Shown piece after piece: positions 15,227-56,027 of a DNA stretch of 64,000 nt. The DNA is from Thermoguttaceae bacterium. Lineage in GTDB: Bacteria > Planctomycetota > Planctomycetia > Pirellulales > Thermoguttaceae. Within the stretch, counting starts at the first letter, position 1; every line of letters starts with the position of its first letter. The position numbers were made by a program, and so were the translations under genes. The stretch is from positions 63,737 through 127,736 of the forward strand of contig JBEKZV010000011.1 of assembly GCA_049509515.1 (NCBI GenBank), read 5' to 3'. The notes under the pieces were generated by a model that was given only the letters and a program-made list of their open reading frames with translations, searched no databases and was not told the origin of the DNA.

Positions 15227-15263
15227 GTGACGTTAGTTCCCTAGTTCCCTGAAGTCCACGGCC

Positions 15264-15305: not shown

Positions 15306-15326
15306 GGGGAGTCGCGACAACACCAA

Positions 15327-17444: not shown

Positions 17445-17456
17445 TATTGCCAGCGG

Positions 17457-18112: not shown

Positions 18113-18313
18113 AGCGCCTCCCTCGTTGGAATGAGCTTGCTCCGCCCGTTCTGCCGCTGTATCCTGCGTTGCCGCCTTCCCTTTCTCCCCATCCGCTTCG
18201 GTTCGGGACACCCGCCCGCGACACCCTATAGTCTATGCCCAGGGGCAGAGAGCCGCAAGGCGGGTCGCACCTTTGTTTCCGGGAGCACAAAACCTTCAAG
18301 GCGGGCGGGCTAT

Positions 18314-19720: not shown

Positions 19721-19721
19721 G

Positions 19722-40351: not shown

Positions 40352-41007
40352 CCGCTGTCATCGTCCGGCAAGGCTTGAAAACCAAGATTAGCGAGTATCG
40401 GCCGCACGTCCCTACCGGGAATCTCGTACTCGTTTCCTACGGGCGTCGGCAACGAGTTGTGGCGGGCGGGCGGCGAGTTGCTCTGCCACCGGCTCCCGGA
40501 CCGTGCCGGCGATTCCCGGCTTCTTCGACCTCAAGAGCCTTACCGGGCGGCTTGTCCACATGCCGGCCTTTGAAGACGAGGCGGCTGCCCACCCAGCTTG
40601 CTATGTAGCACACGGCTTATCTTCCAAGTAATCATGCCGGCGAAACCAGAATAGGCGTTACATTCGGCAGTTTATGGCAAGACAGTTGGCGACAAACGTG
40701 ACGTTCTTGTCGAAAAATCTGACCCTTTCGGGTCAATCTTGGCGACTAAACGAATAAAATGCTACAAGCCGAGCAAGACACATAACGGTTGCAAACCCTA
40801 CCCAATGATTCCCCGACAAGTCCCGACCGGCCCCAGTCGAAAGACGTGACTGTTGCAGTAACGCCTTTAAGGCGAGGCCGGCCGGAAACACCCCCCAAGC
40901 GATCCCGCCAGTAGAAACGAAGGGAAACAGCAGATCGATCTCGGTGGAGGATCCCGCCGAGAGCATCCATGTCCACCCGACGGGGTGGCCCACAAGGAGG
41001 TGGCACT

Positions 41008-42516
41008 GTGCGCACGATCAGGCACACCAGAGGCGAGTTTCGGGGCTGTCGCGCGGGTCTAGTCGTGCTGGGGGTTTTGTGCCTCGGGCTCGGCGCGTGC
41101 CGGTCGTCCAGCAACGACTGCCCGCCGCGGCGGATGGAACCCCGATTGGACCCCGGTTGGCCCAGGGCCAATAACTTCTTCACGCAGGTCTCGTACCAGG
41201 AGGTCCGCGCGGCGCTGCCGAAGATCGCGGGGGCGGAGTACGTCAACGACGCCGAGATCTGCGCCACATGCCACGAGACGTACACGAAGTCGTTTGCCGA
41301 CAACGTACACCGCCGCGACAACTGCGAGTCGTGCCACGGCCCGGCCAGCCGCCACGTCGAGACCCGCGGCAAGGAGCCGGGGCTGATCTTCAGCTTCAAG
41401 CAGGGGGATCCCTACGTGCGGGCGGAGGCCTGCCTGCGGTGTCATGAGGAGAACCAGTGCACCCAGGGGGCCCAGTGGCGGACCTCGAAGCACGCGCACT
41501 GCGGCGTGACTTGCGTCGATTGCCACCGCGGCCACTACAACGTGCCTTACGGCACCCCGGCCACCACCGCGCCCGGCGAGGCCCGCGGTCCGCTGGGCGA
41601 GATAACCCAGTTCGCCTCGTTGCGGCTTGCCGCCGAGCCTGCCCCGCCCAAGACGGAGCTGCCTTCGCTCCGCGGGTCGTCGCGGCACCTCGGCGCGGTG
41701 GCGCCGAACGTCTGCTACCGTTGCCACTGCGACATGCAGGACATGCAGCAGATCGCGGGACCGCACCAGGTTTGCGGGCCCAACGGATTCAATTGCACCA
41801 CGTGCCATGATCCGCACGGCGTGCTGAAGGAGTCCTCCAGGAAGGACCTCTGTCTGTGCTGCCACGCGCAGCATGCGCCCACGATGGCCTGGCACTCCTC
41901 GATCCACGCCAATAACGGAGTGGCGTGTACCGACTGCCACAATCCGCACCCGCGGGCCTGCGTCCCGCGGTTCGTCGAGATCGACCACTACCAGGTGAAG
42001 CGGCCCAAGCGGATGCCGATGTCCGTCCAGGAGCCCGAGGCGTGCTACAAATGCCATGCGAAGATGTACGGCCTGAACGCGATGCCTTCGCACCATCCGA
42101 TCAAGGAAGGGAAGATGGTCTGCTCGGACTGCCACGACCCGCACGGCCAGTACCTCGGCAACCTCAAGGACGAAACGATCAACCTGGTGTGCTACCGCTG
42201 CCATGCCGAGAAGCAAGGGCCGTTCGCCTACGAGCACCCGCCGGTGACCGAGAACTGCTGCATCTGCCACGAGCCGCACGGGGCCGTGGCCAAGGACTTG
42301 TTGCGGCAGCCGGTGACCTTCCTGTGCATGCGGTGCCACCCCGGCCACGCCAACAACTCGCATGCCAACATCCTCGTCGGTACGAAAAGCGGCGCCGTTA
42401 CCACCAGCGCCGCGCAATACCAGAAGGGCTTCTACACCGACTGCACCGCCTGCCACGCCGACATCCACGGCAGCAACAGCGCGTCGGTCAGCGGCCACGG
42501 AACCTTAACGCGTTAA
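41008..42516 (+). CDS. Multiheme c-type cytochrome lipoprotein (~14 CxxCH motifs)
   Basis: Listed as an ORF from ATG 40969. GTG at 41008 has a perfect AGGAGG 7 nt upstream and gives a lipoprotein signal ...AGLVVLGVLCLGLGAC. Heme motifs: CATCH, CESCH, CLRCH, CVDCH, CYRCH, CTTCH, CLCCH, CTDCH, CYKCH, CSDCH, CYRCH, CICH, CMRCH, CTACH. Confidence 0.85.
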   Translation: MRTIRHTRGEFRGCRAGLVVLGVLCLGLGACRSSSNDCPPRRMEPRLDPGWPRANNFFTQVSYQEVRAALPKIAGAEYVNDAEICATCHETYTKSFADNVHRRDNCESCHGPASRHVETRGKEPGLIFSFKQGDPYVRAEACLRCHEENQCTQGAQWRTSKHAHCGVTCVDCHRGHYNVPYGTPATTAPGEARGPLGEITQFASLRLAAEPAPPKTELPSLRGSSRHLGAVAPNVCYRCHCDMQDMQQIAGPHQVCGPNGFNCTTCHDPHGVLKESSRKDLCLCCHAQHAPTMAWHSSIHANNGVACTDCHNPHPRACVPRFVEIDHYQVKRPKRMPMSVQEPEACYKCHAKMYGLNAMPSHHPIKEGKMVCSDCHDPHGQYLGNLKDETINLVCYRCHAEKQGPFAYEHPPVTENCCICHEPHGAVAKDLLRQPVTFLCMRCHPGHANNSHANILVGTKSGAVTTSAAQYQKGFYTDCTACHADIHGSNSASVSGHGTLTR

Positions 42517-42589
42517 CCGAGGTTTTACCGCCCGCGGGCGCGCCGACCCGCGGGCTTCTTGATCACCGTTCGCGGCAGGGGGGCTGCTC

Positions 42590-44911
42590 ATGTTTCGGAA
42601 ATACGTGCTCTGCGCCTTCGGGGCGATCACCTGTGCCACGGCTCTGGCCGTGGCGGCCCGCGCCCAGGACGTTCAGGACCCTTACCTGGCCGGGCCGAGC
42701 TGCGGCGTCGTGTCGGACCTGGATGTCCGCATGGGCTACTGGGCGTCGCACACCACGGGCAGCCCGGTCAAGGTCGGCGAGTACCAGGACTTGGCGTCCT
42801 CCCTGTTCTACGACGTGGACATGCTCCGCAGCAACGGTACCCGCACGTTGGACTTCACCGCCAACGGCACCGACCCCGACGCCAACAACGTGTACCTGCA
42901 CTACTTCGGCCCGGGGCTGGCGGGCCAGGGGCTGGAGGCCAACGTCAACTACCAGAGCTTCATACACAACCTCGGCCACGACAATCTGGGCCAGTTCACC
43001 GACTCGGGCGGAACCAACAACAACACCGACAACGGCGCCACCGGCGCCAACATCCGCGGCCAGCAGTTCCTCAGGCAGGACTTCAACCCCGGCGAGGACT
43101 ACGCCATTCGCGTGCAGGAGTTCAAGGCGAACTTCAAGGCCGAGTTGACCCCGGACCTCCGGATCCGGTTGGACGTGTGGGGCATCGACAAGGAGGGGAC
43201 CCGCCAGGTCAACTCGATGCAGGAGTGCTACCCGCACACGTACGCCACCATCGACCCCACCACCACCAGCCTGCCGGCGCAGAGTGCCGGCGGAACCAAC
43301 CACTGCCACATCCTCAGCCAGTCGCAGCACATCGATTGGCAAACCACCGAGGTCAAGCCGGTCGTCGAATGGAACCTCGGCCCGGTCGTCATCGAGTATT
43401 CCCGGCCGATGCGGACCTTCACCCAGGACGATCAGACCGTCTACCGCTTCTATGACTTCGAAGGCGTGACGCCGGGTTCCAAGCCGTACAGCCTCGTCCC
43501 CGACAACACCACGCAGATCGACCAGTTCAAGCTGAATGTGCTGGTGAACGAGGACAACCGCTTCTACGGATTCTTCTACACCGGCAACACCCGCAGCGAG
43601 GGAGAAGCGGTGCTGCCGAGCGGGGAACTGGCCGACGAGGTCAACAACCGCCGCATGACTGGCGCCGACATCCGCTGGACCAACACGACCATCGACAACG
43701 TGACGATCACCCCCTATGCCCGCTACGTGAAGGAAACCAACCTGTTCAGCGAAGAGGCGGATACCACCTTCCCCATCAACTACGAGCGCTCGCAAGCGGG
43801 CGTGCGAACCCTCTGGCGGCCTTTCGGCGGCGGTTTCGGGCTGGGAGGGCTGGCCATCAAGGCCGAGTACGAGTACGGCGATCTGCACCGCGCCAACCTG
43901 GACTTCCCGCAAGACGGCATCGGCCCCGCGGGTGGCCCCGGCCCCAGCATCGCCGCCGGTGAGATCGACGAAGAGCACACCCGTAGCAACATCTTCTCCA
44001 TCGGTCCTACGGTGCGGTGGTCGCCGCAGTTCGACACGTACCTCAAGTACAAGTATTACGATACCCAGGACGCGTTGTACGCCGTGGCTTACCACAACCC
44101 CAGCAGCCGCGACAGCCCCCCCTACTCCTACGCCGGCCTGTCGACCAACAGCGCCCTGCCCGAGTACGACAACATCATCGAGCTCGGCGGCACCTGGCTC
44201 CCCAACGACCGCTTCATGCTCAACGGCTGGATCGGCTTCGACATGCAGAGCCAGAGCGAAGGCCAGTTGGTGATCAACAATACCTTCGCGCCCAGCGCGT
44301 CGCGGACGGAAGCCCTGACTTCCAAGACCGACAACTACCCGTGCGGCCTGAACGGCTCCTACCGGGCCGGCGACAAGTGGACGCTCAACTTCGGCGCCGC
44401 CTATTTCACCAACTGGATCGATCAAGACGTGACCTTCAGCCCCGGCTCGGATCACGGCTTCGGCGGCACGGTCACTCCGCCTTTCCCCGCCGGACCCAAC
44501 CAGTACGGGGCGCTGCTGAACCGCCTCGCCTATGGGGGCCGGGCCGGGGTGTTCAACCTGGGCGCCACCTATCGCCTCAGCCCCAGGCTGCGATTCCAAG
44601 CCCAAGGCGAGTATGTCCACGGCATCGACTCCGCGTACCAACTCTCCGGCGATCCCAACTTCCCGCAGACCAACGCGGCGACCGCGAGCATCCCCGGCAT
44701 CTTCCGCGACGACGTGGTCATTACGCGGGTCTCCGCGGGGATCGATTACCTGGTCTCGAAGCGGTGTACCGCTTACTTCCGCTACGTGCTGTTCGACTAC
44801 CAGGACAGCGCAGACAAGACGCAGTTGGCCGCCTCCACACTGCCGGTCGACGGCCTGCCGCTCTCCGGCACGTCCAACCTGTTCCTCACCGGACTGAACG
44901 CGACGTTCTAG
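42590..44911 (+). CDS. Large outer-membrane beta-barrel protein (773 aa), candidate porin partner of the upstream multiheme cytochrome
   Basis: Signal peptide MFRKYVLCAFGAITCATALAVAARAQD. Aromatic-rich body with alternating hydrophobic residues and many Y/F/W-G-N motifs. C-terminus ...LFLTGLNATF (terminal Phe). No CxxCH motifs. Starts 73 nt after the cytochrome gene. Confidence 0.7.
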   Translation: MFRKYVLCAFGAITCATALAVAARAQDVQDPYLAGPSCGVVSDLDVRMGYWASHTTGSPVKVGEYQDLASSLFYDVDMLRSNGTRTLDFTANGTDPDANNVYLHYFGPGLAGQGLEANVNYQSFIHNLGHDNLGQFTDSGGTNNNTDNGATGANIRGQQFLRQDFNPGEDYAIRVQEFKANFKAELTPDLRIRLDVWGIDKEGTRQVNSMQECYPHTYATIDPTTTSLPAQSAGGTNHCHILSQSQHIDWQTTEVKPVVEWNLGPVVIEYSRPMRTFTQDDQTVYRFYDFEGVTPGSKPYSLVPDNTTQIDQFKLNVLVNEDNRFYGFFYTGNTRSEGEAVLPSGELADEVNNRRMTGADIRWTNTTIDNVTITPYARYVKETNLFSEEADTTFPINYERSQAGVRTLWRPFGGGFGLGGLAIKAEYEYGDLHRANLDFPQDGIGPAGGPGPSIAAGEIDEEHTRSNIFSIGPTVRWSPQFDTYLKYKYYDTQDALYAVAYHNPSSRDSPPYSYAGLSTNSALPEYDNIIELGGTWLPNDRFMLNGWIGFDMQSQSEGQLVINNTFAPSASRTEALTSKTDNYPCGLNGSYRAGDKWTLNFGAAYFTNWIDQDVTFSPGSDHGFGGTVTPPFPAGPNQYGALLNRLAYGGRAGVFNLGATYRLSPRLRFQAQGEYVHGIDSAYQLSGDPNFPQTNAATASIPGIFRDDVVITRVSAGIDYLVSKRCTAYFRYVLFDYQDSADKTQLAASTLPVDGLPLSGTSNLFLTGLNATF

Positions 44912-46383
44912 GGCGTGATCCCGATTGCTTGCGACGGCTTCTGCGCCGAAGTTCGCTCGGCGGGCAGTGGCGGGAGGTCGACCTTCGGCTCGGCCAGGCC
45001 CAGCTCGCGGCAGAGGGCGGAGATGCGATCGGCCACGGCGTGGTTGAGCGTCGTGGCATAGTGCATGTTGTGCACGTCGTTGCCCGTGCGCAGAAAATCC
45101 AGGTCGTGCTCCACGTTCTCCAGCTCGGTGCGGAGCGCGGCCGCGCGGCCGGCGGCGAGATGGGCCGCGGGGACCGCCGCGCGGATCCGCGCCAGGGCGG
45201 AGGCCAGCTCGGGCAGCGACGCGCGGAGCTGGGCGTGGTAGACCTGGAACTGCTTCACGGCGGCCGCGTCGTGGCACATCGAGCAAACGGCCGGCGAGCC
45301 TCGCACGAGCACCGTCCCGGTGGACGAGACCTCTTTCTGCAGATGGCAGGTGCGGCATTCGAGGCGGACGACCGCCATGCCGCCGGACTGGGCGGCGATG
45401 GTCCGGCCGCCGCTTCCCCGGAGCATCTGCACCTGCTCCCCGTGGTGGTTCGGGTGGCAGGATTGGCAATTCGCCGCGGCGTGTTCCAGCTTGCGGCGGT
45501 CCAGCGAGTGCTCGATGGGATTGTGGCAGTGCAGGCAGTCGATCTTGTGCTCGGTGACGTGCTTGGCGTGCATGAACAGCGGGTCGTGGATGCGTTCCAG
45601 GTCGCCCGGGCGGTTGTGGCAGGAGAGGCAGCGCTCGGGGGCCACCTGGCCGTCGCCGCGGATCACGTCGCCGTGGCAGTTGGCGCAGTCGACGCCCTTC
45701 TCGTACGCCAGGTCGTGGGTGAAGGTGACGCCGCCGCCCAGGTCGAACTTCGTGTCGGGGATCTGGTGGCAGTGGGTGCAGGCGCCGAGGCCCTCGTTGA
45801 GCGGCTCGTCCTTGAAGTGGCACAGGAAGCAGGTCGAGGTGGTCACGGTCATGTGGCTGCCCTGGACGATCTGGCTGTGGCAGCTCGTACAGCGGAGCTG
45901 CTTGCCGCGGCGGGTTTCCTTGAGGTGCGGCGTGTGATCGAAGGGCACGCCGTGGAAATCGACCCGCCCGACCAGGAGCCGCGTCTCGTGGCACCCCGAC
46001 CGCAGGCAGCTTGCGTCGGGGATTTCCGCGGTGGGGCGGGTGCCCGCGCTCTGCGTCACGTACTTGGCCAGTTGCACCAGGCCGAGCATCTTGCCGCGGA
46101 GTTTCCCGCCGAGGCCCGGCGGGAAATGGCACTCGATGCAACTCACGTCCTTGTGCGTCGAGGCCTGCCACGACTTGTAGTAGGGCTCCATGATGTGGCA
46201 GCTATTGCAGAACTCAGGGCGCGAGGTGTACCAGCCGGCGCAGGCCACCAGCAGCACCACCAACAGCGCCAGCGAGCCGGCCAGCGCCGCTCCGCGGGCA
46301 GCCAGGCGGCGGAGCGTCCGCCAGGCCGGGCTGGATCGGGCGGCGGCCAGGAACCGGACCAACCGTTGCCATGTTCCGCGCAC
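44908..46383 (-). CDS. Membrane-anchored multiheme c-type cytochrome (~12 hemes, NapC/NirT/NrfH-like N-terminus; ImcH-like architecture)
   Basis: GTG start at 46383. N-terminal TM anchor AALAGSLALLVVLLVACAGWY, then CNSCH, CIECH, CLRSGCH, CTSCH, CFLCH, CTHCH, CANCH, CLSCH, CLHCH, CQSCH, CRTCH, CSMCH. Its stop overlaps the barrel gene's stop at ctag 44908-44911. The start lies 1 nt from the stop of the upstream cytochrome gene. Confidence 0.8.
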   Translation of the reverse strand: MRGTWQRLVRFLAAARSSPAWRTLRRLAARGAALAGSLALLVVLLVACAGWYTSRPEFCNSCHIMEPYYKSWQASTHKDVSCIECHFPPGLGGKLRGKMLGLVQLAKYVTQSAGTRPTAEIPDASCLRSGCHETRLLVGRVDFHGVPFDHTPHLKETRRGKQLRCTSCHSQIVQGSHMTVTTSTCFLCHFKDEPLNEGLGACTHCHQIPDTKFDLGGGVTFTHDLAYEKGVDCANCHGDVIRGDGQVAPERCLSCHNRPGDLERIHDPLFMHAKHVTEHKIDCLHCHNPIEHSLDRRKLEHAAANCQSCHPNHHGEQVQMLRGSGGRTIAAQSGGMAVVRLECRTCHLQKEVSSTGTVLVRGSPAVCSMCHDAAAVKQFQVYHAQLRASLPELASALARIRAAVPAAHLAAGRAAALRTELENVEHDLDFLRTGNDVHNMHYATTLNHAVADRISALCRELGLAEPKVDLPPLPAERTSAQKPSQAIGITP

Positions 46384-46384
46384 G

Positions 46385-48733
46385 TCAGCCCCCCAACCCG
46401 GCGTAGATCATGCCCGCCAACAGCGCCAGCCCCACGCCCAGGGCCCCGTAGCCCAGGGCCGTCACGAGCCACAGCGTCGCGCGGCCCGGGGCGGTCGTCC
46501 GCAGCCCCTCCAATTGCCCCTCGCGGCGGAGCCGCTCGAAGAGCACCGGGCGCGTGTCCTGGAACTCCTCTTCGCTCACCAGGCCGGTCAGTACCGAGCG
46601 GTCCACGGGGAAGACGTCCGGGCGGAGGTGCGTGTTGAAGAAGTGTACGGCGAACACGAAACCGGTGGCCAGCAGGGCCTGCGTGGAGTGGATCACCTGG
46701 GCCACGTTCACGCCGATGCCCGGCAGAAAACGGCAGAAGAAGTTGGGGAACCACAGCACCAGCCCGGTCGAGCCGATGATCACGATGTCGGCGGCCGCGC
46801 CCCAGAAATCGAACTTCTCCCAGTAACCCCAGCGATCGAAGGTCGGCTTGGGCCCCAGGCCGACGAACCACCGCAGCATGGCACAGACATCTTTGACGTC
46901 TTGGAGATTGGGGATGGGAGAATCCGGGCCGAACACCAGCGCGGTCCTCCGCGTGCCGCGGCGGCGGCCCTGCACGTAGAGGCACACCAGCCGCACCAGG
47001 TACGCCGTGAAACAGCCGAAAGTGACCAGGGCGAAGACCCGGTGCCAGAAACTGGTCGAGGCGAAGCCGCCCATGGCCTGTGCCACTCGCTGGGCCCACT
47101 CCATGGAGCTGTACTTCATCGGCAGGCCGGTCAAGGCGAGCCCCAGGAAGGCCAGCAGCATGACGGCGTGTCCGATGCGGTGGAAGCGGGGAAAACGGAC
47201 GTAGGCCGGCCCCAACGGCTGGAGGCGCCGCGGGCGGCCGCCGTGGAACACGTCCACCAAGCCCCGCACGAACCACAGGACCGAGTGCACCCCGAACAGC
47301 CCGAACGTCGTCAACAACACCGTCAGCAGGACCACGTAGACGCCATGCACGATCGGGCTGCGCTGGGGATCGGTATAGTCCGTGTGCGGATCGAAGGCCA
47401 GGAAATTGCCCGAGGCGTTGGCATGGCACTGCCGGCAGGTCTCGGCGCGATTTTCCGCCGACAGCCGCGAGCCGGCCTCGGAGGCCGGCAGGATGTCGTG
47501 GGCCCCGTGGCAGTCCGAGCACTTGGCGGCCGGGGCGTACCCCAACTCCGTCAGGTGGCCGTGGGCGCTCAGGGCGTACTGGCTCTCGAGGTCGGCGTGA
47601 CAGCTTCCGCAGCGGGTTGGCGACTGCAGCCGGAACGCCGCAGAAGTCGGCTGTGCCAAATCGTGCCCCACGTGGCAGGAGGTGCAAGTAGGTCTCTGGT
47701 TAGCCAGTTCGCCCGGCGCGTGCCGGGCACCCGGGGCTTCCCGGGCGGCCGGGCCGCCCGGCGCGCCGCCCCGGCCGTGTACGCTGGCCGCCAGCCACTC
47801 TTCGATAAACCGGTGGCACTTGCCGCAGGTCGCAGCGACCCGCGTGCTGCTGAGCGTGGACCGCTTATCGGGAGCGCGGTAGACCCCGTGGGCCCCGTGG
47901 CAGTCCGCGCAGGCCGGCACCACCAACAGGCCCATCTTGTGCAGCCCCCGCCCGTGCACGCTCTGCATGTACGTTTCGAGGTGCTCCGCATGGCACTCGC
48001 CGCAGACCTTCAATTGGTGGTCGAGGAACACGGGCGACGCCGGGTCGCGGACCCCCAGCAATTGATGTGCGACCGGGCCGTGGCACTGGTCGCACGCCAG
48101 CGGGGTGCCCCGGCCGCGGTCGTCCTTGGCCCCCGCCTTGTCATGCACCCCCTTGACCAGGTCGATCGCCTGCTCTTTGTGACAGGCCGCGCAGAACTTC
48201 TTCACCTCGGCCGGCTTGGAGCGGAAGCCGTCCTCGGCGGCGTGCGGCGTCTGCTTGATGTCCTCCGCCCGGACATTCCCGCCGTGGCAGTCGTGGCAGT
48301 TCACGCCGGCCAGCCAATGCACGTCGCGTTTCAGCCCTTCGCGGGAGATGAACAGCCGCTTCTTGTCGCCCTCCCACAGGTCCGGCTCGCCGTGGCAGAC
48401 GATGCAGTTATTCTTGTCCGGGGGGACGTGGGAGCCTTTTGGCGGCGGCAGGACGATCGCTGCGGGGGCTGCGGCGGCCGGGGCGGTTACGGCGGGAGCC
48501 GGAGTGGCGACCGGAGCCGAGACGGCGCCGGGAGCCGAAGTGGCGATGGGCGCCGGGGGAGCATGCGGGCCGCCCGGTTGGAGAACCGGGGTGGATGCCG
48601 GCGACGGCTGGGCATCGGCCTCGGCCGCCTGGGCCACATAGCCGGGGACCGCTGCCTGCCAGGCAGGCACGGCGCTACCCGCTACCGCCAGGAGGATCGC
48701 TGCCGGCAGCAACCACGCGAAAAACCGTTTCAT
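46385..48733 (-). CDS. Fusion of an ~11-heme c-type cytochrome domain with a multi-TM b-type cytochrome domain (CbcL-like architecture)
   Basis: Listed as an ORF to 48805. Start at ATG 48733 (MKRFFAWLLPAAILLAVAGSAVPA, signal). Heme motifs: CIVCH, CHDCH, CAACH, CDQCH, CGECH, CADCH, CGKCH, CTSCH, CGSCH, CSDCH, CRQCH. The C-terminal ~300 aa has at least 6 TM helices with conserved His residues (RFHRIGHAVM, VIHSTQALL, AVHFFNTHLRP), similar to HydC/FdnI-type diheme cytochrome b. Confidence 0.85.
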   Translation of the reverse strand: MKRFFAWLLPAAILLAVAGSAVPAWQAAVPGYVAQAAEADAQPSPASTPVLQPGGPHAPPAPIATSAPGAVSAPVATPAPAVTAPAAAAPAAIVLPPPKGSHVPPDKNNCIVCHGEPDLWEGDKKRLFISREGLKRDVHWLAGVNCHDCHGGNVRAEDIKQTPHAAEDGFRSKPAEVKKFCAACHKEQAIDLVKGVHDKAGAKDDRGRGTPLACDQCHGPVAHQLLGVRDPASPVFLDHQLKVCGECHAEHLETYMQSVHGRGLHKMGLLVVPACADCHGAHGVYRAPDKRSTLSSTRVAATCGKCHRFIEEWLAASVHGRGGAPGGPAAREAPGARHAPGELANQRPTCTSCHVGHDLAQPTSAAFRLQSPTRCGSCHADLESQYALSAHGHLTELGYAPAAKCSDCHGAHDILPASEAGSRLSAENRAETCRQCHANASGNFLAFDPHTDYTDPQRSPIVHGVYVVLLTVLLTTFGLFGVHSVLWFVRGLVDVFHGGRPRRLQPLGPAYVRFPRFHRIGHAVMLLAFLGLALTGLPMKYSSMEWAQRVAQAMGGFASTSFWHRVFALVTFGCFTAYLVRLVCLYVQGRRRGTRRTALVFGPDSPIPNLQDVKDVCAMLRWFVGLGPKPTFDRWGYWEKFDFWGAAADIVIIGSTGLVLWFPNFFCRFLPGIGVNVAQVIHSTQALLATGFVFAVHFFNTHLRPDVFPVDRSVLTGLVSEEEFQDTRPVLFERLRREGQLEGLRTTAPGRATLWLVTALGYGALGVGLALLAGMIYAGLGG

Positions 48734-48744
48734 GCGTCGCTGGC

Positions 48745-49281
48745 CTACTGCTTGTCGTAAGCCGGGTGCGGCTTGTGCTGCTGGTCGATGTGGCAGCGGA
48801 CGCAAACGTTCTGCGGCGCGATCTTATAGATCGATCCCCGCACTTCCTTGTCCTGGTCCGGCGAGAGGACTTTCACGTTTTCGTATTTCTTGGCGATGAC
48901 GGCGTGCTGGCTGCCCGGGCCGTGGCAGGCCTCGCACGTGGTGCCGGCGAGGTTGGGGGTCGAGGTCGCATCCTTGAAACCGGTGGCGGCCCCGTAGCCC
49001 GTGGAGTGGCAAATCAGGCACTCGGCGGTGCCGCGATACTTGGCCGGCACGCTCTCGAATGCCTCTTTGGCGTGCTTGGTCTTCTTCCATGCCATGTAGG
49101 CCTTCAGGTGGCAGGCGGCGCACTGCTTGGTTCCCGTGTAGGTCTGGTCCGCCGGGGGATGGACCTCCGTGACCGGTTCCGCCGGCGGCTGCGACCGCGC
49201 CGGCAGCCCCCACAGCATCCAAATTGCAGCCAACGTCCCTGCCCCAAGCAGTGCCAACCAATCACACCTCGGCCTGACCAT
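48745..49281 (-). CDS. Periplasmic tetraheme c-type cytochrome
   Basis: 178 aa with a signal peptide. Heme motifs CAACH, CLICH, CEACH, CVRCH. It is the first gene of the minus-strand cytochrome operon; 11 nt separate it from the next gene. Confidence 0.8.
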   Translation of the reverse strand: MVRPRCDWLALLGAGTLAAIWMLWGLPARSQPPAEPVTEVHPPADQTYTGTKQCAACHLKAYMAWKKTKHAKEAFESVPAKYRGTAECLICHSTGYGAATGFKDATSTPNLAGTTCEACHGPGSQHAVIAKKYENVKVLSPDQDKEVRGSIYKIAPQNVCVRCHIDQQHKPHPAYDKQ

Positions 49282-49712
49282 GTTCTTTCTCCTGACTACA
49301 CGGGAAGGTATGGCCTCGGCTTCGACGGCACACCCGCTGTTACGCCGAATCGAGGTACTCGAATCAGTTTAATTTAGTCTGGCGTAGCAATCAATAAGTG
49401 GGTCTCATAATTTTTCGTTTTGAGGCCGTGGTTGACGGGATTGTTGAAACACGTTTTGATTTAAGAACTTATATCGTTTGGAAAGCCTCCGCAAGCAAAC
49501 GAAGCGGCCGATAGATTATCATGCTACTTGTCTTTATGGCTAGACTAGGAATGATTTCCAAACACCCCATGCTAGACAACCACCCCGTCAGGTGGTTCAT
49601 AACCATGCTCAGTTGGCTTTTCCGTCTGAACCCCTTTGACAAGACGCATATGAACCTGGTATAGACATTCCATGAGAGACGTGCCTGCGGTTCACTTCAA
49701 GGAGGCCGGTCG
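49282..49712. promoter_or_regulatory. AT-rich divergent promoter/regulatory region between the two cytochrome operons
   Basis: About 430 bp at roughly 40-45% GC within a ~68% GC context. Contains a sigma70-like ttgaca-17 nt-gtatag candidate, three catgcta repeats, a ctagactag element, and AAGGAGG 7 nt before the Rieske ATG. Confidence 0.5.
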
Positions 49713-50177
49713 ATGACCGAATCCGTTGCCCGGCGCAATTGGTTGCTGCGGTGCCTGGAGGCCGGGATCGCCATGACCGTGGCAGCGATCTTCTACCCGG
49801 TGGCCCGGTTCCTTCGGCCCAGGACGGCGACACGGTCGGGCGGACTGGAGATCGTCGCTCCATACCGCATGGATCAGCTCAAGCCGGACGCCGAAGGTCG
49901 CTGGCCGCCACCGTTCGACTTCGGCGGCAAGCCGTGCCTGCTGATCCTGGTGGACGGCCAACCCAGGGCGCTGAATGCCGTGTGTACGCACCTGGACTGC
50001 ACGGTCGAGTATCGCCCCACCCCGGGCGATATCTTCTGCAACTGCCACAACGGCCTGTACGACCTGAACGGCCGCAACATTTCCGGCCCGCCGCCGCGGC
50101 CGCTGGAACTCTACAAGGCCGTCAAGGGCAAGGGGAATCCCGGCCAGGAGGAGATCCTTGTCTCGCGCATCGTCTGA
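49713..50177 (+). CDS. Rieske [2Fe-2S] subunit of a cytochrome bc-type complex
   Basis: TAT-type N-terminus [19 protein letters not shown]. Cluster ligands CTHLDC...CNCHNGLYD (CxH...CxxH). Confidence 0.9.
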
Positions 50178-51531
50178 AATCGCGTCGGGGAACCGGGGCT
50201 GGCTGGGGCGCCTCGGGGAGTTCTTCTACCAGCGGTTGGGCCTGGACAGCGCCGCGGCCCTGGCCGCCAAGAAACACGTCCCCGTCCACCGCACCACTTT
50301 CTTCTATTTTCTCGGCGGGATGGCGCTATTCTTGTTCGGCGTCCAGGTGGCCACCGGCATCCTGCTCTCGCTCTACTACAAGCCTTCGCCCGACCAGGCC
50401 TTCGAGAGCGTCCGCGCGATCATGACCGAAGTGGACTTCGGCTGGCTCTTCCGCTCGATCCACTCCTGGAGCGCCAACCTGCTGATCGGGATCCTGTTTC
50501 TGCACCTGTTGACGACGTACATGATGCGGGCGTACCGGCGGCCCCGTGAACTCACCTGGATGACCGGCGTCGTCCTGCTGGGCGTCTTCCTGGCCTTCGG
50601 CTTCAGCGGCTACCTGCTGCCGTGGAACCAGCTTTCCTTCTTCGCCACCCGGGTGGGCACGGCCATCGCCGGCGCGGTGCCCGGCATCGGCAAGTACGCC
50701 TTGCTCATGGCCCGGGGGGGAGAAGAAATCACCGGCGACACCTTGGCCCGCTTCTATGCCCTGCACGTCGTGATCCTGCCGCTGGCGACAATCGGCCTTA
50801 TCGGGCTGCACCTGTTCCTGGTGCAGAAGCACGAGATCAGCATCCCGGAGGGAGCGATCCGCGAGCACGGCGGTGTGGACAAGGTTCCCCACATGCCCTT
50901 CGTGCCGCATTTCCTGCTCCACGACATGGTCGGCTGGTATCTGGCGCTGGGAATCCTGGCCGCCCTGGCCGCCCTGTTCCCGTGGGAGCTCGGGCAGAAG
51001 GCCGACCCCTTCGGCTCCGCCCCGGCGGGAATCAAGCCGGAGTGGTACTTCCTGTTCATGTTCCAGGCGCTCAAGCAACTCCCCGCCAACCTCTGGGGGA
51101 TCGAATGGCTGGAGGGGGACATGGTCGGGGTGCTGTTCTTCGGGTTCTGCGGCGCGGTGGTATTCTTAGTGCCATACCTGGACGCGGACGTCACGCGGGA
51201 GCGATCCCGCCGCCTTCTGACCTTGTTGACGGCCCTGCTCGCGGCATTCCTTGCGGCGGTGGTCTTCTGGTTCCTGTGCAATGCGGCCGGCGCGCTCGTG
51301 GTGTACCGGTTCACCGATCCGTCGCAAGCGCGAGACCTCGACCGGGAAGCATCGGTGGCCTGGTGGCTGCAATACGTGGCCTACCCGGCGTGTTGCGGCG
51401 CGGCGATGATCCTCATCGCCCTGGCGACGTTCGGACGCCCCCGCCGGCAGCCGCGGTTGAACGTCAACCTCATGGCCGCCTTGGCCGTGTTGTTCTTCAT
51501 CGTCATGACCGCCTGGGGGCTGGCCAAATGA
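50158..51531 (+). CDS. Cytochrome b subunit of a bc/b6f-type complex (fused b6 plus subunit-IV-like, 457 aa)
   Basis: TTG start at 50158 with AGGAGGAG upstream; it overlaps the Rieske gene by 20 nt. Cytochrome-b signatures: [22 protein letters not shown], His ligands in [14 protein letters not shown] and [12 protein letters not shown], and [13 protein letters not shown]. The stop overlaps the next gene's start (ATGA). Confidence 0.9.
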
Positions 51532-52901
51532 GAACGATCCGAGCGTTGTCCCTGGCGATCATGCTTGCGGCGGCGTCCGCAGCCGCGGCGGCGGAGCCCA
51601 AGGTCCAGGCCGGCCAGGCCCCGCCGGGACCGAACAACTGCATCCTCTGCCACAGTAACAAGGACCTGTGGGAGGGCGAGCAAGCGAAATTGCTCGTCAC
51701 CGAGGCCGATCTGGCCGGCGACATCCATTGGCAGAGCGGACTGCGCTGCCAGGACTGCCACGGCGGCAACCCCCGGGCGGAGGACATCAAGCAGGCGCCA
51801 CACGCCGCCGAGGACGGGTTCCGCAAGGTTGGGTCGCCCAAAGACGTTCCCGAGTTCTGCGGGAAGTGCCATGCCGACATCGAGTACATGCGCCGCTACC
51901 GCCCCTCGCCGCGGACCGACCAGCTTGCCGAATACTGGACCAGTGACCACGGCCGGCAGCTCAAGACCGCCGGCGATTTGAAGGTGGCCACGTGCATCTC
52001 CTGCCACGACCGGCCGCACGGGTCCGGCGCCGAGCGGCACCCGCACGGGATACGGCCCGTCAGCGACCCGGCCTCCTTCGTCTATCGCACCCGCGTGGCC
52101 AAGACCTGCGCCACCTGCCACGCGGACAAGAAGCTGATGGCCGGCCGGCAGTATCACGGCCAGCCCCTGCCGTGCAACCAGTACGAGCAGTGGAAGGAGA
52201 GCGTCCACGGCAAGGCCATGATGGAGAAAGGCGACCTCAGCGCTCCGACCTGCAACAACTGCCACGGGAACCACGGGGCGGTCCCCCCGCAGGTCGACAG
52301 CGTGGCCAACGCCTGCGGCGCCTGCCACGGCAAAGTGGCCAAGCTGTTTGCCGAGACCCGCATGAGGCACAAGTTCGAGTTGGTGGGCCTGCCGGGATGC
52401 GCGACCTGCCACGGCAGCCACGAGATCCGCCAACCCACCGATGCGATGCTGGGCATGCAGACCGGGGCCGTCTGCGCCCGCTGCCACGAGCAAGGCAAGT
52501 TCGGGGCCACGCTGGCCGGGGCGGCGACCGCCAGGAAGCTCCGCGCCGGCCTCGAACGGCTCAAGCGTGGCATCGGCAAGGCGCAGGACACCCTCAGCGA
52601 GGCGGAGCAACTGGGCATGGAGGTCAGTCAGCCGCAATTCACCCTCCGCAAGGCCTCCGACGCCCTGACCAACGCCCGCTCCCTGATCCACGCCTTCCAG
52701 CCCGACCCGGTCGAAAAGGCCCTGGCTACCGGCCAAGAAGTCGTCGAGGAGGTCCAGGAGCAGGGCGACCATGCCCTCCAGGAGCACACCGCGCGGCGGA
52801 TCTGGCTGGCGGCCTCCCTGGCGCCGATCCTGCTGGTGATTCTCTTGCTGCTGCTCTACATCCGCAGCCTGCCGGCGCCGACGGACGGCGCGGACAGTTG
52901 A
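51528..52901 (+). CDS. Nonaheme c-type cytochrome with a C-terminal TM anchor (the c-type subunit of the bc complex)
   Basis: True start ATG 51528 ([22 protein letters not shown], signal), inside the spurious 759-aa ORF 50622..52901. Heme motifs CILCH, CQDCH, CGKCH, CISCH, CATCH, CNNCH, CGACH, CATCH, CARCH. C-terminal anchor [21 protein letters not shown]. The N-terminal ~90 aa are paralogous to the N-terminus of the 46385..48733 protein. Confidence 0.85.
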
Positions 52902-53038
52902 TCCATCCTGCCCAGTCTCTCTGCCCCGCGGCATTTTCCCGAAAGTCACATTGACAGGGTTGCCCGTGCGGGATTATCGTTAGCGGCCCAAAAAGTTGGG
53001 CGATCGCGGCTCCAAACCTTGGCTGCCAACGCACCGCC

Positions 53039-55030
53039 ATGACAACTCTCGGCCAGCTCTGCTTGTTGATCGCGCTGGTGGGCTCGGGGTATGCGGCCTT
53101 TGCGTGCATCGTGGGGTGGCGGGGCGGGCACGGCGCGGTCCTGAAAGGCGGCTTGGCGGCGGCATGGGCCGCGCTGGCCGGGCTGTGCGGAGCGGCGGTG
53201 ATCCTTGCCCATGCACTGTTGATCAAGGACTTCCGTTTCGACTACGTCGCCCGCTACTCCGACGCCCTCCTGCCGGTACATTACTCGCTGTCGGCATTCT
53301 GGGTCGGCCAGGAAGGATCGCTCTTGTTGTGGGCCTGGTTGGTCGCCCTGGTGGCGATCAGTTACCGCTTCACCGCGGGCAAACAAGCCGACGGGCTGCG
53401 CGAGCTGGCCTTCGGCGTGCTGATGGCCTACGCCTGTTTCTTGGTGGCGATCATGGTGTTTGCCGCGGATCCGATGCGGCCCGGCCTGACCGCCCGGACG
53501 AGCGGTGAGGGACTGTCGCCCCTCTTGCAGCATCCGGCGATGCTGGTTCACCCGCCGATCGTCTTCCTCGGTTACTCGCTGTGGGGCGTCCCGTTTGCGC
53601 TGGCCGTGGCCTGCCTGGTCAGCGGCCGGTTCGAAGCCGCGTGGCTTCGCCAGGCGCGGGCTTGGGCCCTGGTGGCCTGGGCAGTGCTGGGCGGCGGCAT
53701 CCTGTGGGGTGCCGAGTGGGCTTATGAAGAACTCGGCTGGGGCGGCTACTGGAGCTGGGACCCCGTCGAAAACGGATCGCTCATGCCGTGGCTGGCAGGA
53801 ACCGCCCTGATCCACGGCCTGCTGGCCTGGCAGCATTCCGGCGGCCTGAAGAAGACCACCCTGGGGTTGGCGGTGGCGACGTTCGCGCTGTGCAACTTCG
53901 CCGCCTTCCTCACCCGCAGCGGCATCTTCAGCAGCCTGCACGCCTTCAGCCGGTCGCCGATCGGCTGGATGTTCCTGGCGTTGATGTTGTTTCTGGTGAT
54001 CGGAGGGGCCGCGCTGCTCTTGGCCCGCAGGAGCCGGCTGGCGGCCGAGCGGCCCATCGCCGGCCTCTGGAGCCGCGAGGCCCTTGTGCGGCTGGGAGTA
54101 CTGGCGCTGGTGCTCCTGGCTGCCGTCACTCTGGCGGGCACCTTGGTCGTGCCCGTGGCCAGTATCCTCTGCGGTCCGCGAATCGTCCTGGGCGCCGGTT
54201 TCTACAATTGCGCCTTGATCCCCGCGGGATTCGTGCTCTTGGCGGCCATGGTGGCGACGCCGTTGTGCCGGTGGCGGGGTTCTCCGACGGCCGCGGGGAA
54301 GCAGTGGCTCACGGCCGCCGCCGGCGCGGGGGGCATCGCTGCAGCGACGGCCTTCCTGCGCGGTGCGCGGCATCCGGTCACCTTGGCCGTGGCCGGGCTG
54401 GCCGCCTCCGCCGCAGTCGCGACGGTGGCCGCCTGGATCCTCGACGCGCGCCGGCTCTCGTCGGCGCGGCCCTGGCTCCGACCGCTCCGCGCACTCGCCC
54501 TCCGCCGCAGGCAGTACGCCGCCCTGGGCATCCACCTGGGCTTCGTCGCGCTGGCGATCGGCGTGACGGGCTCCTCGCTGGCCGTGCGATCTCACGACGC
54601 CACCCTGGCGCAGGGCGACGTGCTCCACTGGGCCGGCTACTCGATCCGCTGCCTTGCCGTGCGAGCGCGCGACCTGCCGGACCGCTCGATCCTGGCCGCG
54701 GAACTTGAGGTGTCCGAAGGCGGGGCGACGCCCTACCAAGTCACGCCCAGCAGGGCCTGGCACCGGCCGCTGAACCAGTGGACCACGCGCGTCGCCATCC
54801 GCTCCCGCTGGGACGGCGACTTCTACGCGATACTGCGGGGCGAGGTCGAGCCGGGCAAGGCCGATTTGACGTTCCAGGACAACCCCATGATGCGATGGCT
54901 GTGGGCCTCGGGGTGGATCGCGGCCGCCGGCGCCGCGATCGGACTGGGGCCAGCGAGACGGCGCGGCCGGCGCCTGCCGGAAGCACGGCCGGCACTCCTG
55001 CCCCACGCCGCGCGTTCGAACCGCCATTGA
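53039..55030 (+). CDS. ccmF: Cytochrome c-type biogenesis heme lyase, CcmF/NrfE family
   Basis: 663 aa and polytopic. WWD motif WAYEELGWGGYWSWDPVENGSLMPWLAGTALIHG, with conserved His residues in the flanking TM segments. Confidence 0.85.
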   Translation: MTTLGQLCLLIALVGSGYAAFACIVGWRGGHGAVLKGGLAAAWAALAGLCGAAVILAHALLIKDFRFDYVARYSDALLPVHYSLSAFWVGQEGSLLLWAWLVALVAISYRFTAGKQADGLRELAFGVLMAYACFLVAIMVFAADPMRPGLTARTSGEGLSPLLQHPAMLVHPPIVFLGYSLWGVPFALAVACLVSGRFEAAWLRQARAWALVAWAVLGGGILWGAEWAYEELGWGGYWSWDPVENGSLMPWLAGTALIHGLLAWQHSGGLKKTTLGLAVATFALCNFAAFLTRSGIFSSLHAFSRSPIGWMFLALMLFLVIGGAALLLARRSRLAAERPIAGLWSREALVRLGVLALVLLAAVTLAGTLVVPVASILCGPRIVLGAGFYNCALIPAGFVLLAAMVATPLCRWRGSPTAAGKQWLTAAAGAGGIAAATAFLRGARHPVTLAVAGLAASAAVATVAAWILDARRLSSARPWLRPLRALALRRRQYAALGIHLGFVALAIGVTGSSLAVRSHDATLAQGDVLHWAGYSIRCLAVRARDLPDRSILAAELEVSEGGATPYQVTPSRAWHRPLNQWTTRVAIRSRWDGDFYAILRGEVEPGKADLTFQDNPMMRWLWASGWIAAAGAAIGLGPARRRGRRLPEARPALLPHAARSNRH

Positions 55031-55040
55031 GGAGGTTGCC

Positions 55041-56027
55041 GTGGGAATGGTTCAAGCACTGCTGGTGATCGGCGCGGTCCTGTCGGGCCCGCTGCCGGGG
55101 AGTAACGGCACGATCCGCGGCACCGTCGTGAACCGGTCAGCCACGAGGCCCGTGCCGTGCCAGGCCACCGTGGTCCTGAGGATTGAATCGGGCGGCCAGT
55201 TCGTCCCGCTACGCCAGTTGGAAAGCGATTCGCAGGGACGGTTCCGCTTCGACCGATTGCCGGTCGGGGCCATTTACCGGTACTTGGTTGGGGCCAACCG
55301 GGACGAGGTGCACTACCCCGGGCCGCGAATCGTCCTGACGGACGGGCGGCCTGAGGCCGAGGTCGAGTTGGGCGTCCGCGACGCGGTTGCCCGGCCCAAC
55401 CCCCTCCTGATTCGCAGCCTGGAAATTGTGATCGTGCCGGAGCCCGGCGCGCTTCGGGTGTCCGAGTCCCTGCGCATCGAGAACCCTTCTTCCACGTGTT
55501 ACGTGGGCGAGCCGCCCCCGGGAGGCGGCACCCCGGTAACGCTTGCCCTGGGCATCCCTGCCGACTTCGAGCGCACGACGTTCGAGAAGGAGTTCTACGG
55601 GCGGCGGTTCGCGGTGGCTGACGGCAAGGTGGTAACAAGCCTTCCGTGGCCGCCCGGCCGGCGGGAACTCCGCTATACGTATGTGCTCCGCAACGACCAT
55701 GCCTACCGGTGCTGGGAGCGGCCGCTTGACCTGCCGTGCTCCCACGTGCGGGTCCGCGTCCGCACGTCCAAACCCAACGACGTGCGGTGTAATCTGCCTT
55801 GGCTGCCCGCCGAATGTGACGGCGAGATCCTTTTCCAATCCGACGATCCGATCCTGCCGGCCGGGCACGTCCTGCGCGTCGAATTGGGCCGCCTGCCGCT
55901 CGGCTGGATGGACTATGCCAGGCCCGCCGCCCTCCTGAGCCTGATCGGGCTGATCGCCGCCACGAGCTGCGTGCTGGTCCGACGACGACACACGCACCCC
56001 AAACCCGTTCGCGGCTCCAAGCCATAG
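55041..56027 (+). CDS. Membrane-anchored protein with an N-terminal carboxypeptidase-regulatory-like (transthyretin-like) domain
   Basis: 328 aa. Signal or anchor, then GTIRGTVVNRSATRPVPCQATVVL...DSQGRFRFDRLPVGAIYRY. C-terminal TM helix LLSLIGLIAATSCVLV. Starts 11 nt after ccmF. Confidence 0.5.
   Translation: MGMVQALLVIGAVLSGPLPGSNGTIRGTVVNRSATRPVPCQATVVLRIESGGQFVPLRQLESDSQGRFRFDRLPVGAIYRYLVGANRDEVHYPGPRIVLTDGRPEAEVELGVRDAVARPNPLLIRSLEIVIVPEPGALRVSESLRIENPSSTCYVGEPPPGGGTPVTLALGIPADFERTTFEKEFYGRRFAVADGKVVTSLPWPPGRRELRYTYVLRNDHAYRCWERPLDLPCSHVRVRVRTSKPNDVRCNLPWLPAECDGEILFQSDDPILPAGHVLRVELGRLPLGWMDYARPAALLSLIGLIAATSCVLVRRRHTHPKPVRGSKP

Follow-up and report, generated by a model that had tools for sequence, protein, structure and literature searches.

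Gene content of the locus

The window (the whole stretch of 64,000 nucleotides that was analysed) carries a Rieske/cytochrome b operon, a divergently transcribed cytochrome operon, and the remainder of a cytochrome c maturation (ccm) operon. The five genes between 49713 and 56027, encoding a Rieske protein, cytochrome b, a nonaheme cytochrome, CcmF and a last protein here called X, lie as the initial annotation had placed them. The features are listed below.

44908-46383, minus strand: NapC/NrfH-like membrane-anchored multiheme cytochrome, last gene of the divergent operon (PF03264, TIGR03153)
46385-48733, minus strand: CbcL-like fusion protein, in which a signal peptide and a c domain with 11 hemes precede a membrane domain of the HydC/FdnI cytochrome b type
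48164-48421, minus strand: three-heme N-terminal module of the CbcL-like protein, the stretch closest to the nonaheme subunit (alignment)
48745-49281, minus strand: c554-like tetraheme periplasmic cytochrome, gene 1 of the divergent operon (PF13435, E=1.6e-13; 4 CXXCH)
49282-49712, no strand: intergenic region between the divergent operons, 431 bp, AT-richer
49713-50177, plus strand: Rieske 2Fe-2S subunit, 154 aa, ATG start (PF00355, E=9.6e-10)
50158-51531, plus strand: cytochrome b of the fused b6 + subunit IV type, 457 aa (PF00033, PF00032)
51528-52901, plus strand: nonaheme c-type cytochrome in the cytochrome c1/f position (9 CXXCH)
51624-51887, plus strand: three-heme N-terminal module of the nonaheme subunit (alignment with the CbcL-like module)
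52951-52980, plus strand: promoter-like site TTGACA-18-TATCGT ahead of ccmF (10/12 matches)
53000-53038, plus strand: first deletion junction, the ccm leader running into the ccmF start with no ccmE in between (DNA alignment with L003)
53039-55030, plus strand: CcmF heme lyase, 663 aa, apparently intact (PF01578 and PF16327 above cut-offs)
54960-55030, plus strand: second deletion junction, ccmA, ccmB, ccmC and ccmD missing (alignment with L003)
55041-56027, plus strand: X, 328 aa, periplasmic, with two predicted β-sandwich domains, last gene, GTG start

A bc-type complex with a nonaheme subunit

The Rieske subunit matches PF00355 with 38.7 bits against a cut-off of 20.3, has both cluster-binding boxes, CTHLDC (C-x-H-x-x-C) and CNCH (C-x-x-H), and carries a twin-arginine-like ARRNWL at its N-terminus. 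It is 87% identical to the orthologue in L003, the closest relative. Cytochrome b begins with TTG, overlaps the Rieske gene by 20 nt, and is preceded by the ribosome-binding site GGAGGAG. No alternative in-frame start exists ahead of its conserved N-terminus, and L003 has the identical start and overlap, which bears out the initial annotation. The protein matches PF00033 (E=1e-50) and, at residues 282-370, PF00032 (E=1.5e-9), and its best matches in the PDB are cytochrome b6 (E=4e-55). The heme ligands H102/H116 (H-x13-H) and H203/H218 (H-x14-H), and the PEWY Qo motif at 294-297, are invariant among aligned relatives. Alignment with these relatives also reveals a lineage-specific insertion of about 83 aa, which gives two extra transmembrane helices.

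The ATG of the nonaheme gene overlaps the cytochrome b stop codon (ATGA). Its product has a signal peptide, a C-terminal transmembrane helix at residues 425-443, and nine conserved histidines beyond those of the nine CXXCH motifs, eight of them invariant and H173 present in at least 90% of the sequences. Orthologues directly follow cytochrome b in more than ten related loci, and no relative is detectable among solved structures. A membrane-anchored nine-heme cytochrome replacing the monoheme c1, as originally claimed, agrees with these features and with the absence of a c1 match.

The complex resembles b6f-type Rieske/cytochrome b complexes in its Rieske motifs, b6-like heme ligation, PEWY motif, and the gene order Rieske, cytochrome b, C-terminally anchored c-type subunit. 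In contrast, its c subunit carries nine hemes instead of a single one, and its cytochrome b has the two additional helices. The b6f subtype is ruled out by FLGG in place of CxGG (heme c_n) and by the fusion of cytochrome b to subunit IV, and the bc1 subtype by a third gene with nine CXXCH motifs and no c1 family match. Among the closest known systems are the planctomycete cytochrome b clade described by Dibrova et al. (PMC5600118) and the anammox Rieske/cytochrome b complexes with multiheme subunits. The bc-nonaheme genes are widespread among Pirellulales (Thermoguttaceae and relatives), and the bc part is therefore an ordinary member of a little-studied kind. By homology, electrons would pass from menaquinol at the PEWY Qo site to the Rieske cluster, then along the nine-heme chain to the periplasm; the activity of the complex and its electron partners are likewise proposed from homology.

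The divergent operon and the shared heme domain

The operon divergent from the bc module encodes the c554-like tetraheme cytochrome, followed by the CbcL-like quinol oxidase and the NapC-like cytochrome. Between the two operons there is a single weak promoter-like site, which reads on the minus strand (49542-49515). The c554-like gene occupies the same position in L003, L011, L012, L022, L025, L030 and L043. The CbcL-like gene most likely starts at ATG 48733 and encodes 782 aa, since a start at TTG 48805 would overlap the upstream c554-like gene; the length of 806 aa first given corresponds to that TTG. Its product has 11 CXXCH motifs followed by four predicted transmembrane segments beyond residue 460, and matches PF01292 (31.0 bits; cut-off 30.1) as well as multiheme families. 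The NapC/NrfH-like protein (PF03264, E=5e-10; TIGR03153, E=8e-17) has an N-terminal transmembrane helix, 11 CXXCH motifs and one CX4CH, and its counterparts adjoin CbcL-like genes in L001, L024, L026 and L045. The window has 49 CXXCH motifs within 12 kb. Its PSD/PSCyt and DUF1552 genes, like the Thermoguttaceae and Pirellulales names of the X homologues, support the placement of this DNA in a Thermoguttaceae-like planctomycete of Pirellulales.

Members of the CbcL/MtrH/MtoC family have, by definition, a cytochrome b membrane domain of the HydC/FdnI type with a multiheme c domain attached at its N-terminus (PMC6295460). Described from Geobacter and others, the family is already known from Planctomycetes, with 3-23 heme motifs (PMC6295460, PMC9129911). 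The protein in the window has the same fused architecture, the assignment being by architecture and Pfam. It has 11 CXXCH motifs against 9 in G. sulfurreducens CbcL and, unlike known CbcL, a c domain paralogous to the bc-complex subunit encoded next door.

This likeness was first noticed in the initial ~90 aa of the two proteins. The high identity there is real (about 55% over the first ~88 aa, about 27% in the remainder), but the homology extends further. It covers the whole nine-heme domain, because BLASTP of the nonaheme protein against the CbcL-like c domain gives E=1e-47 with 34% identity over 322 aa, and heme motifs 1-9 are colinear. The two three-heme modules share 55% of amino acids and 68% of nucleotides, including a 51-nt patch with only 3 differences. 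Similarity to the other multiheme proteins of the window is far lower, at E=7e-5 for the adjoining NapC-like 11-heme protein and about 1e-6 for a 14-heme protein. The earlier suggestion that one multiheme module sits on two quinol-oxidising anchors stands clear of this background of 1e-5 to 1e-6, and by sequence the two domains are true paralogues. The pair also occurs in L001, L003, L011, L012, L025 and L043; the paralogy is old and common to Pirellulales.

A reduced ccm operon

The gene after the nonaheme cytochrome encodes a CcmF-family heme lyase, as the matches to PF01578 and PF16327 affirm. Its NCBIfam subfamily score of 342 lies below the cut-off of 569, so it is a divergent family member. 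All catalytic residues are kept: the WWD motif WGGYWSWDPVEN at 234-245 and His171, His259, His301 and His499 are invariant in 31 orthologues, in line with the two periplasmic and two membrane histidines conserved in the CcmF/NrfE family. For both ccmF and X, dN/dS is 0.31, and Tajima relative-rate tests find no excess change on the window lineage compared with L003, which has the full operon. Both genes are thus still under selection.

The promoter-like site ahead of ccmF has the same sequence in L003, where it sits ahead of ccmE. With this conserved site of its own, ccmF-X is more than a continuation of the bc operon. All relatives examined keep the ancestral arrangement, ccmE(Cys-type)-ccmF-ccmA-ccmB-ccmC-ccmD-X with its own promoter. 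By the alignments, ccmF-X is what remained after two clean deletions, which took out ccmE and ccmABCD and left the promoter driving only ccmF and X. The junctions are clean, and the ribosome-binding site of X is conserved with L003, as is the promoter-like site; the last ~25 codons of ccmF are non-homologous to L003. In the 64-kb window, tblastn finds no ccmE, and ccmA, ccmB, ccmC and ccmD are equally absent. The same gene order, nonaheme-ccmF-X-pectate lyase, is seen in 4-5 assemblies of independent origin. The genes for heme delivery, ccmABCDE, are predicted at another site of the genome; because further searches did not find them either, it is an assumption that the organism has a working System I.

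NrfEFG is a dedicated CcmF-type lyase system encoded beside its substrate cytochrome. The window resembles it in having a CcmF/NrfE-family gene immediately 3' of a specific multiheme cytochrome, with a TIGR03145 score of 316 bits. However, this score is far under the NrfE cut-off of 927, the CXXCK motif is absent from the cytochromes neighbouring ccmF, and the gene is orthologous to the ccmF of the relatives' general operon.

Protein X and its genomic context

The GTG start of X aligns with the ATG start of X in L003. An AlphaFold2 prediction (pLDDT 89) shows two β domains between a signal peptide and a transmembrane helix at 289-317, and X is accordingly modelled as a C-terminally anchored periplasmic protein with a transthyretin-like domain and a second, larger β-sandwich. 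The first label, carboxypeptidase-regulatory-like, rested on a weak match: X scores 23.6 bits against CarboxypepD_reg (PF13620), under the gathering cut-off of 32.3, and membership is rejected. The folds it matches are generic β-sandwiches of the sort that peptidases, pilins and OST1 contain, and neither Pfam, NCBIfam nor the source annotations give X a function. Conserved features are a probable disulfide C233/C250 and aromatic residues; X lacks CXXC as well as any conserved His or Met that could serve heme or thiol chemistry.

In classical System I, the apocytochrome-handling partners of CcmF are CcmH, which is small and helical and carries CXXC, and CcmI, which has TPR repeats. Like them, X is membrane-anchored, has a periplasmic domain and is encoded next to ccmF, but it has no sequence or fold relationship to either. 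Its identification as CcmH or CcmI is rejected, as it lacks CXXC, is all-β, and has no Pfam or NCBIfam match to those families. No fusion of X to any Ccm protein was found.

X loci were collected from 37 species-level genomes, about 34 of them with upstream DNA, and from 11 metagenome contigs (3 large ones found through X and 8 reached from CcmC). X comes immediately after ccmE-F-A-B-C-(D) in all of the ~34 species genomes with upstream DNA, in 3/3 large contigs found through X, and in 8/8 loci reached from CcmC. All 37 species-level loci belong to Planctomycetota, and the X homologues are named Thermoguttaceae or Pirellulales. The adjacency spans Thermoguttaceae, Lacipirellulaceae, Pirellulaceae, one Gemmataceae MAG and one Ca. 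Anammoximicrobium MAG, with X identity falling to 35% across families and with varying genes flanking ccm-X. The operon directly follows bc-nonaheme genes in about one third of the loci and lies beside the c554/CbcL cluster in others; bc and CbcL genes are missing within 10 kb in L002, L014, L016-L018, L020, L029, L050, L052 and L053. X was never found in a context lacking cytochrome genes, and wherever upstream DNA was covered it was the terminal ccm gene. By gene order, X is tied to cytochrome c maturation as a whole and not to the particular heme-rich proteins of this locus. The initial idea of a maturation or assembly factor thus withstands its own refuting condition, an occurrence of X in unrelated contexts lacking cytochromes, and is refined in that X follows Ccm generally.

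System I* cytochrome c maturation has a Cys-type CcmE and neither CcmH nor CcmG (PMC3601427; PMC9084895). The loci of the relatives agree with this: of the 39 that match CcmE, 37 have the Cys type ([RKQ]C[AT][SG]KY, with C-x-x-K-Y as in System I*), the other 2 being unreadable, and ±10 kb around 53 loci yield no CcmH-like LRCxxC ORF. System I* of Desulfovibrio and Archaea is said to be described in work by Allen in 2006 and Goddard in 2010, and the latter reportedly gives the Desulfovibrio order as ccmEFABCD, as in the planctomycete operons. In contrast to System I*, a seventh conserved gene, X, closes the operon throughout Pirellulales, and the window keeps only ccmF and X.

Role of protein X

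The locus is probably a respiratory module beside a reduced ccm operon, with X a Planctomycetota-specific partner of CcmF. On gene order and topology, a lineage-specific partnership with the CcmF lyase is the most likely role of X. It would hold or present unfolded apocytochrome to CcmF at the periplasmic face, the task of CcmH/CcmI elsewhere, both of which are lacking near these Cys-CcmE systems. More tentative, and with a somewhat less than even chance, is that X is an all-β, non-orthologous replacement of CcmH/CcmI working with CcmF in a planctomycete System I*. X need not be essential, because System I* of Desulfovibrio and Methanosarcina works without any X-like protein (PMC3601427, PMC9084895).

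It is unlikely that a redundant second ccm operon is decaying here, with ccmF-X its non-functional residue and with another complete ccm operon or System II maturing the cytochromes. The deletion of ccmE and ccmABCD, needed upstream of CcmF in the pathway, and the replaced C-terminal codons of ccmF fit such decay. Rearrangement or duplication is plausible because the ccm operons of close relatives sit in different genomic places, linked to the bc complex in L003 and unlinked in L050 and L051. Yet both reading frames are intact, 5/5 invariant catalytic CcmF features are kept, dN/dS is 0.31, there is no rate acceleration relative to the full-operon L003, the promoter-like site and the ribosome-binding site persist, and the arrangement is stable in 4-5 samples.

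Two other readings leave the partnership with CcmF aside. X may be an envelope or periplasmic protein outside cytochrome maturation, such as a binding or scaffold protein, its place as last gene on the ccm transcript being due to chance. The generic sandwich folds, the missing heme- or thiol-handling motif, and the databases silent on function are compatible with this, but it is improbable given the strict adjacency to ccmD (ccmF here) across families despite low identity and changing flanks, and given that X stayed beside ccmF while four to five neighbouring genes were deleted. A role of X in the bc-nonaheme or CbcL-like complex, as an additional subunit or an assembly factor and not as a Ccm component, is very unlikely. 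The analogue of X would be Kustc1130, the small transthyretin-like assembly factor of anammox hydrazine dehydrogenase, and the frequent proximity of ccm-X to the bc-nonaheme genes or the c554/CbcL cluster agrees with such a role. However, dozens of unrelated transthyretin-like domains score equally, and X stays with ccm in the ten loci listed above that are free of bc and CbcL genes within 10 kb.

Significance

The bc part is already common in Pirellulales; the new part of the locus is X, a previously undescribed protein. Whether non-orthologous proteins replace CcmH/CcmI in Cys-CcmE systems has been asked explicitly (PMC9084895). Fixed at the operon end and retained beside ccmF, X is a concrete candidate for how System I* copes without them. 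If X is indeed such a replacement, the locus would be an experiment made by nature, with the lyase module (ccmF-X) physically split from the heme-delivery module (ccmABCDE). The bc part adds that, in soil and peat planctomycetes, which are abundant and whose bioenergetics are almost unstudied, one nine-heme domain is common to a complex of the Q-cycle type and a quinol oxidase of the CbcL type.

Gene content of the region

Given the GC content of about 66% in the window, genuine genes were chosen by codon-position GC. The initial annotation placed a Rieske protein, a cytochrome b, a nonaheme cytochrome, CcmF and a last protein, here called X, at 49713-56027. Five plus-strand genes are present there, and these identities are backed by Pfam and NCBIfam. 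The proposed TTG start of cytochrome b and its overlap with the Rieske gene are confirmed, with a ribosome-binding site upstream, and the c subunit is indeed nine-heme and membrane-anchored.

Genes of the bc/ccm region and the adjoining cytochrome genes (window coordinates)
49713-50177, +, Rieske protein, 154 aa (Pfam and NCBIfam)
50158-51531, +, cytochrome b, 457 aa (Pfam and NCBIfam); TTG start, 20-nt overlap with the Rieske gene, GGAGGAG ribosome-binding site upstream
51528-52901, +, c-type cytochrome (nonaheme), 457 aa; start codon overlapping the stop of cytochrome b (ATGA); 9 CXXCH, signal peptide, C-terminal transmembrane helix
53039-55030, +, CcmF, 663 aa (Pfam and NCBIfam)
55041-56027, +, X, 328 aa; GTG start; CarboxypepD_reg match sub-threshold, 23.6 bits against a cut-off of 32.3
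48745-49281, -, c554-like tetraheme cytochrome; like the next two genes, divergent to the Rieske-cytochrome b-nonaheme genes
46385-48733 (from the likely ATG), -, CbcL-like protein; 11 CXXCH and a PF01292 cytochrome b domain
44908-46383, -, NapC/NrfH-like protein, 11-heme
40969-44911, +, DmsE/GSU2203-family cytochrome (14 CXXCH, 515 aa), then a GSU2204-family protein (773 aa) without CXXCH

The NapC/NrfH-like protein has one further CX4CH motif, CLRSGCH at residue 126, which could be a non-canonical heme site. Its gene is convergent with the pair at 40969-44911. The 14-CXXCH cytochrome and four other cytochromes comprise 49 CXXCH motifs in 12 kb, a set that could serve as an electron conduit, either periplasmic or extracellular. 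The window is assigned to Pirellulales/Thermoguttaceae by its planctomycete-specific PSD/PSCyt and DUF1552 genes (36.8-40.3 kb) and by the names that homologues carry. Unrelated to the bc/ccm finding, the stretch 3497-23000 encodes a hybrid PAS histidine kinase (3497-5548), a phosphate-selective porin (12735-14516) and two RND efflux systems, whose AcrB-like genes (7000-10320 and 19722-23000) are both accompanied by HlyD-like and OEP genes.

The bc complex

The cytochrome b is fused to subunit IV and has b6-type ligand spacing (H-x13-H and H-x14-H) and the PEWY motif, while the CxGG cysteine for heme c_n is absent and replaced by FLGG. It comprises 457 aa, and all relatives have 354-393 aa. 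An insertion of about 83 aa specific to this lineage (51211-51450) adds two predicted transmembrane helices ahead of the last helix, which itself seems partly duplicated.

The nonaheme subunit belongs to a large family with 5980 matches at E≤1e-5, and its named homologues are mostly "predicted CXXCH cytochrome family protein" (JGI) or "cytochrome c3 family protein" (NCBI). It has nine additional conserved histidines, eight invariant and one (H173) shared by at least 90% of sequences, which could be the distal ligands. A sequence search of the PDB gave no match, and a Foldseek comparison of the AF2 model, of moderate quality (pLDDT 72), found nothing in the PDB under E=0.1.

The Rieske-cytochrome b-nonaheme set with divergent c554 and CbcL-like genes recurs in many Pirellulales loci. 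CbcL-family proteins of Planctomycetes and the multiple bc clusters of Lacipirellula are already recorded in the literature. The bc/CbcL part is an ordinary example of a type that has been little studied, for which homology points to an electron-transfer role.

Paralogy of the nonaheme and CbcL-like proteins

The nonaheme and CbcL-like proteins align by BLASTP over 322 aa with 34% identity (E=1e-47), and the nine heme motifs of the former line up in order with motifs 1-9 of the eleven in the latter. The best E-value of the nonaheme protein is 7e-5 against the NapC-like protein and about 1e-6 against the upstream 14-heme protein, so the likeness lies far above the multiheme background. The shared heme domain claimed in the initial annotation therefore reflects true similarity, but its limit of about 90 aa does not stand, since the whole heme domain matches. 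Similarity is highest in the N-terminal three-heme module, with 55% amino acid identity against about 27% elsewhere, and a 17-codon stretch of the two modules in the window has only 3 nucleotide differences.

The paralogue pair is also present in related genomes. In a neighbour-joining (NJ) tree of the three-heme modules, those of CbcL type do not form a single clade. In three related loci (L011, L012 and L043), the CbcL-like module pairs with its nonaheme counterpart from the same lineage at 78% bootstrap. The two modules share 68-76% protein identity within these genomes, and 82% (L011 and L043) or 73% (L012) nucleotide identity. This grouping and the nucleotide identity suggest that, in this lineage, gene conversion has taken place between the gene for the bc subunit and the one for the CbcL-like protein. 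Conversion is rejected as the general cause of the high N-terminal similarity in the window genome, because the two modules of the window and of L003, its closest relative, cluster in 0 of 500 NJ bootstrap replicates; their separation indicates old paralogy. The 17-codon patch also occurs in the nonaheme module of L015 and the CbcL-like module of L025 and could thus be ancestral, so that this short patch is possibly either converted or ancestral. In another relative (L001, 17337-19638), separate genes encode the multiheme c part (430 aa) and the cytochrome b part (339 aa) of the CbcL-like protein, and the fusion is therefore not fixed.

The ccm operon of relatives and the reduced ccmF-X locus

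Homologues of X number at least 246, and about 160 clusters match at E<1e-30 in the representative library. All named homologues are "hypothetical protein" or "carboxypeptidase-like regulatory domain protein", and the best match among GTDB representative genomes, which do not include the window organism, is 73%. In relatives the operon order is ccmE-ccmF-ccmA-ccmB-ccmC-ccmD-X, with X last. When each species was represented by a single genome, a scan yielded 37 loci, every one of them from Planctomycetota, and X immediately follows the ccm genes in every one with upstream sequence. Loci reached through CcmC, a route free of X bias, have X after ccmD in 8/8 cases. Among the loci with upstream sequence, the last gene was in no case encountered in surroundings lacking cytochrome genes.

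The CcmE of these operons is of the Cys type (RCASKY and variants), and no CcmH-like LRCxxC ORF lies within 10 kb of them. These features correspond to the System I* variant (Allen 2006; Goddard 2010; PMC3601427), and the planctomycete ccmEFABCD-X operon would be System I* plus one extra conserved gene, X. No description of X or of any ccm-linked CarboxypepD_reg-like protein was found in the literature.

Downstream of X, eight loci have a conserved protein of about 180-250 aa and a radical-SAM enzyme (about 380 aa), both of which may likewise be connected with heme or cytochromes:
L001, 11151-13007
L002, 11341-13154
L053, 9955-11855
also L013, L014, L016, L018 and L046

The small protein occurs near X in 18/53 loci, in L026 the radical-SAM gene stands alone and on the other strand, and the window has neither. 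The CcmC proteins of L003/L004 and L050/L051 are 95-96% identical, and their ccmEFABCD-X neighbourhoods differ: the operon follows bc genes in the former and an ACT-domain gene in the latter. Within the genomes of these close relatives it is evidently mobile.

In the window the operon is reduced. No match to ccmE, ccmA, ccmB, ccmC or ccmD was found anywhere in the 64 kb by tblastn. For the ccmABCDE genes of the window organism, a CcmC homologue and cluster search with five context look-ups gave only close relatives with complete ccmEFABCD-X. L003 (78-91% protein identity) has the order Rieske-cytb-nonaheme-ccmE-F-A-B-C-D-X. DNA alignment with it reveals two clean deletions. The first lies between the ccm leader and the start codon of ccmF; the second begins near the ccmF 3' end and stops shortly before the ribosome-binding site of X. 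A promoter-like TTGACA-18-TATCGT precedes ccmE in L003 and is conserved before ccmF in the window. Misassembly is ruled out as the source of the missing genes by the same order, nonaheme-ccmF-X-pectate lyase, in 4-5 independent assemblies. A dedicated NrfE-type lyase is likewise ruled out by the lack of a CXXCK motif and by orthology to the operon ccmF of relatives.

Architecture and proposed role of X

In the AF2 model of X (pLDDT 89), residues 22-112 form a transthyretin-like sandwich and residues 123-282 a second β-sandwich, which is larger; a transmembrane helix (289-317) then leads into a short basic tail, and a signal peptide is predicted at the N-terminus. Conserved residues are chiefly Gly, Pro and aromatics, plus a Cys233/Cys250 pair; a CXXC motif is absent, as is any conserved His. 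Seven long family members were scanned for fusions to known domains and gave only a weak CarboxypepD_reg match.

X is tentatively proposed, at a little under an even chance, to associate with CcmF in the periplasm and to hold or present apocytochrome there, taking the functional place of CcmH/CcmI. The initial annotation had considered the last gene a possible maturation or assembly factor, and the consistent ccm-operon context supports this with the refinements made here. That same context speaks against two less likely alternatives, that X is an unrelated protein co-transcribed with the ccm genes and that X is an assembly factor for the respiratory complexes. Less likely, too, the ccmF-X pair might be a decaying relic, the two deletions having removed the rest of the operon. 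CcmF retains the WWD motif and all four functional histidines. Relative to L003, ccmF and X each have a dN/dS of 0.31 and the bc genes 0.17-0.24, and relative-rate tests with three outgroups give no acceleration of ccmF-X on the window lineage. By these measures the pair looks functional, which implies heme-delivery genes elsewhere in the genome.

For X as the partner of CcmF, the joint survival of exactly ccmF and X fits the two-module logic of System I, in which CcmABCDE would form the heme-delivery module and CcmF with X the ligation module. On comparative genomics, X and the reduced ccmF-X locus would represent a variant of a known system.
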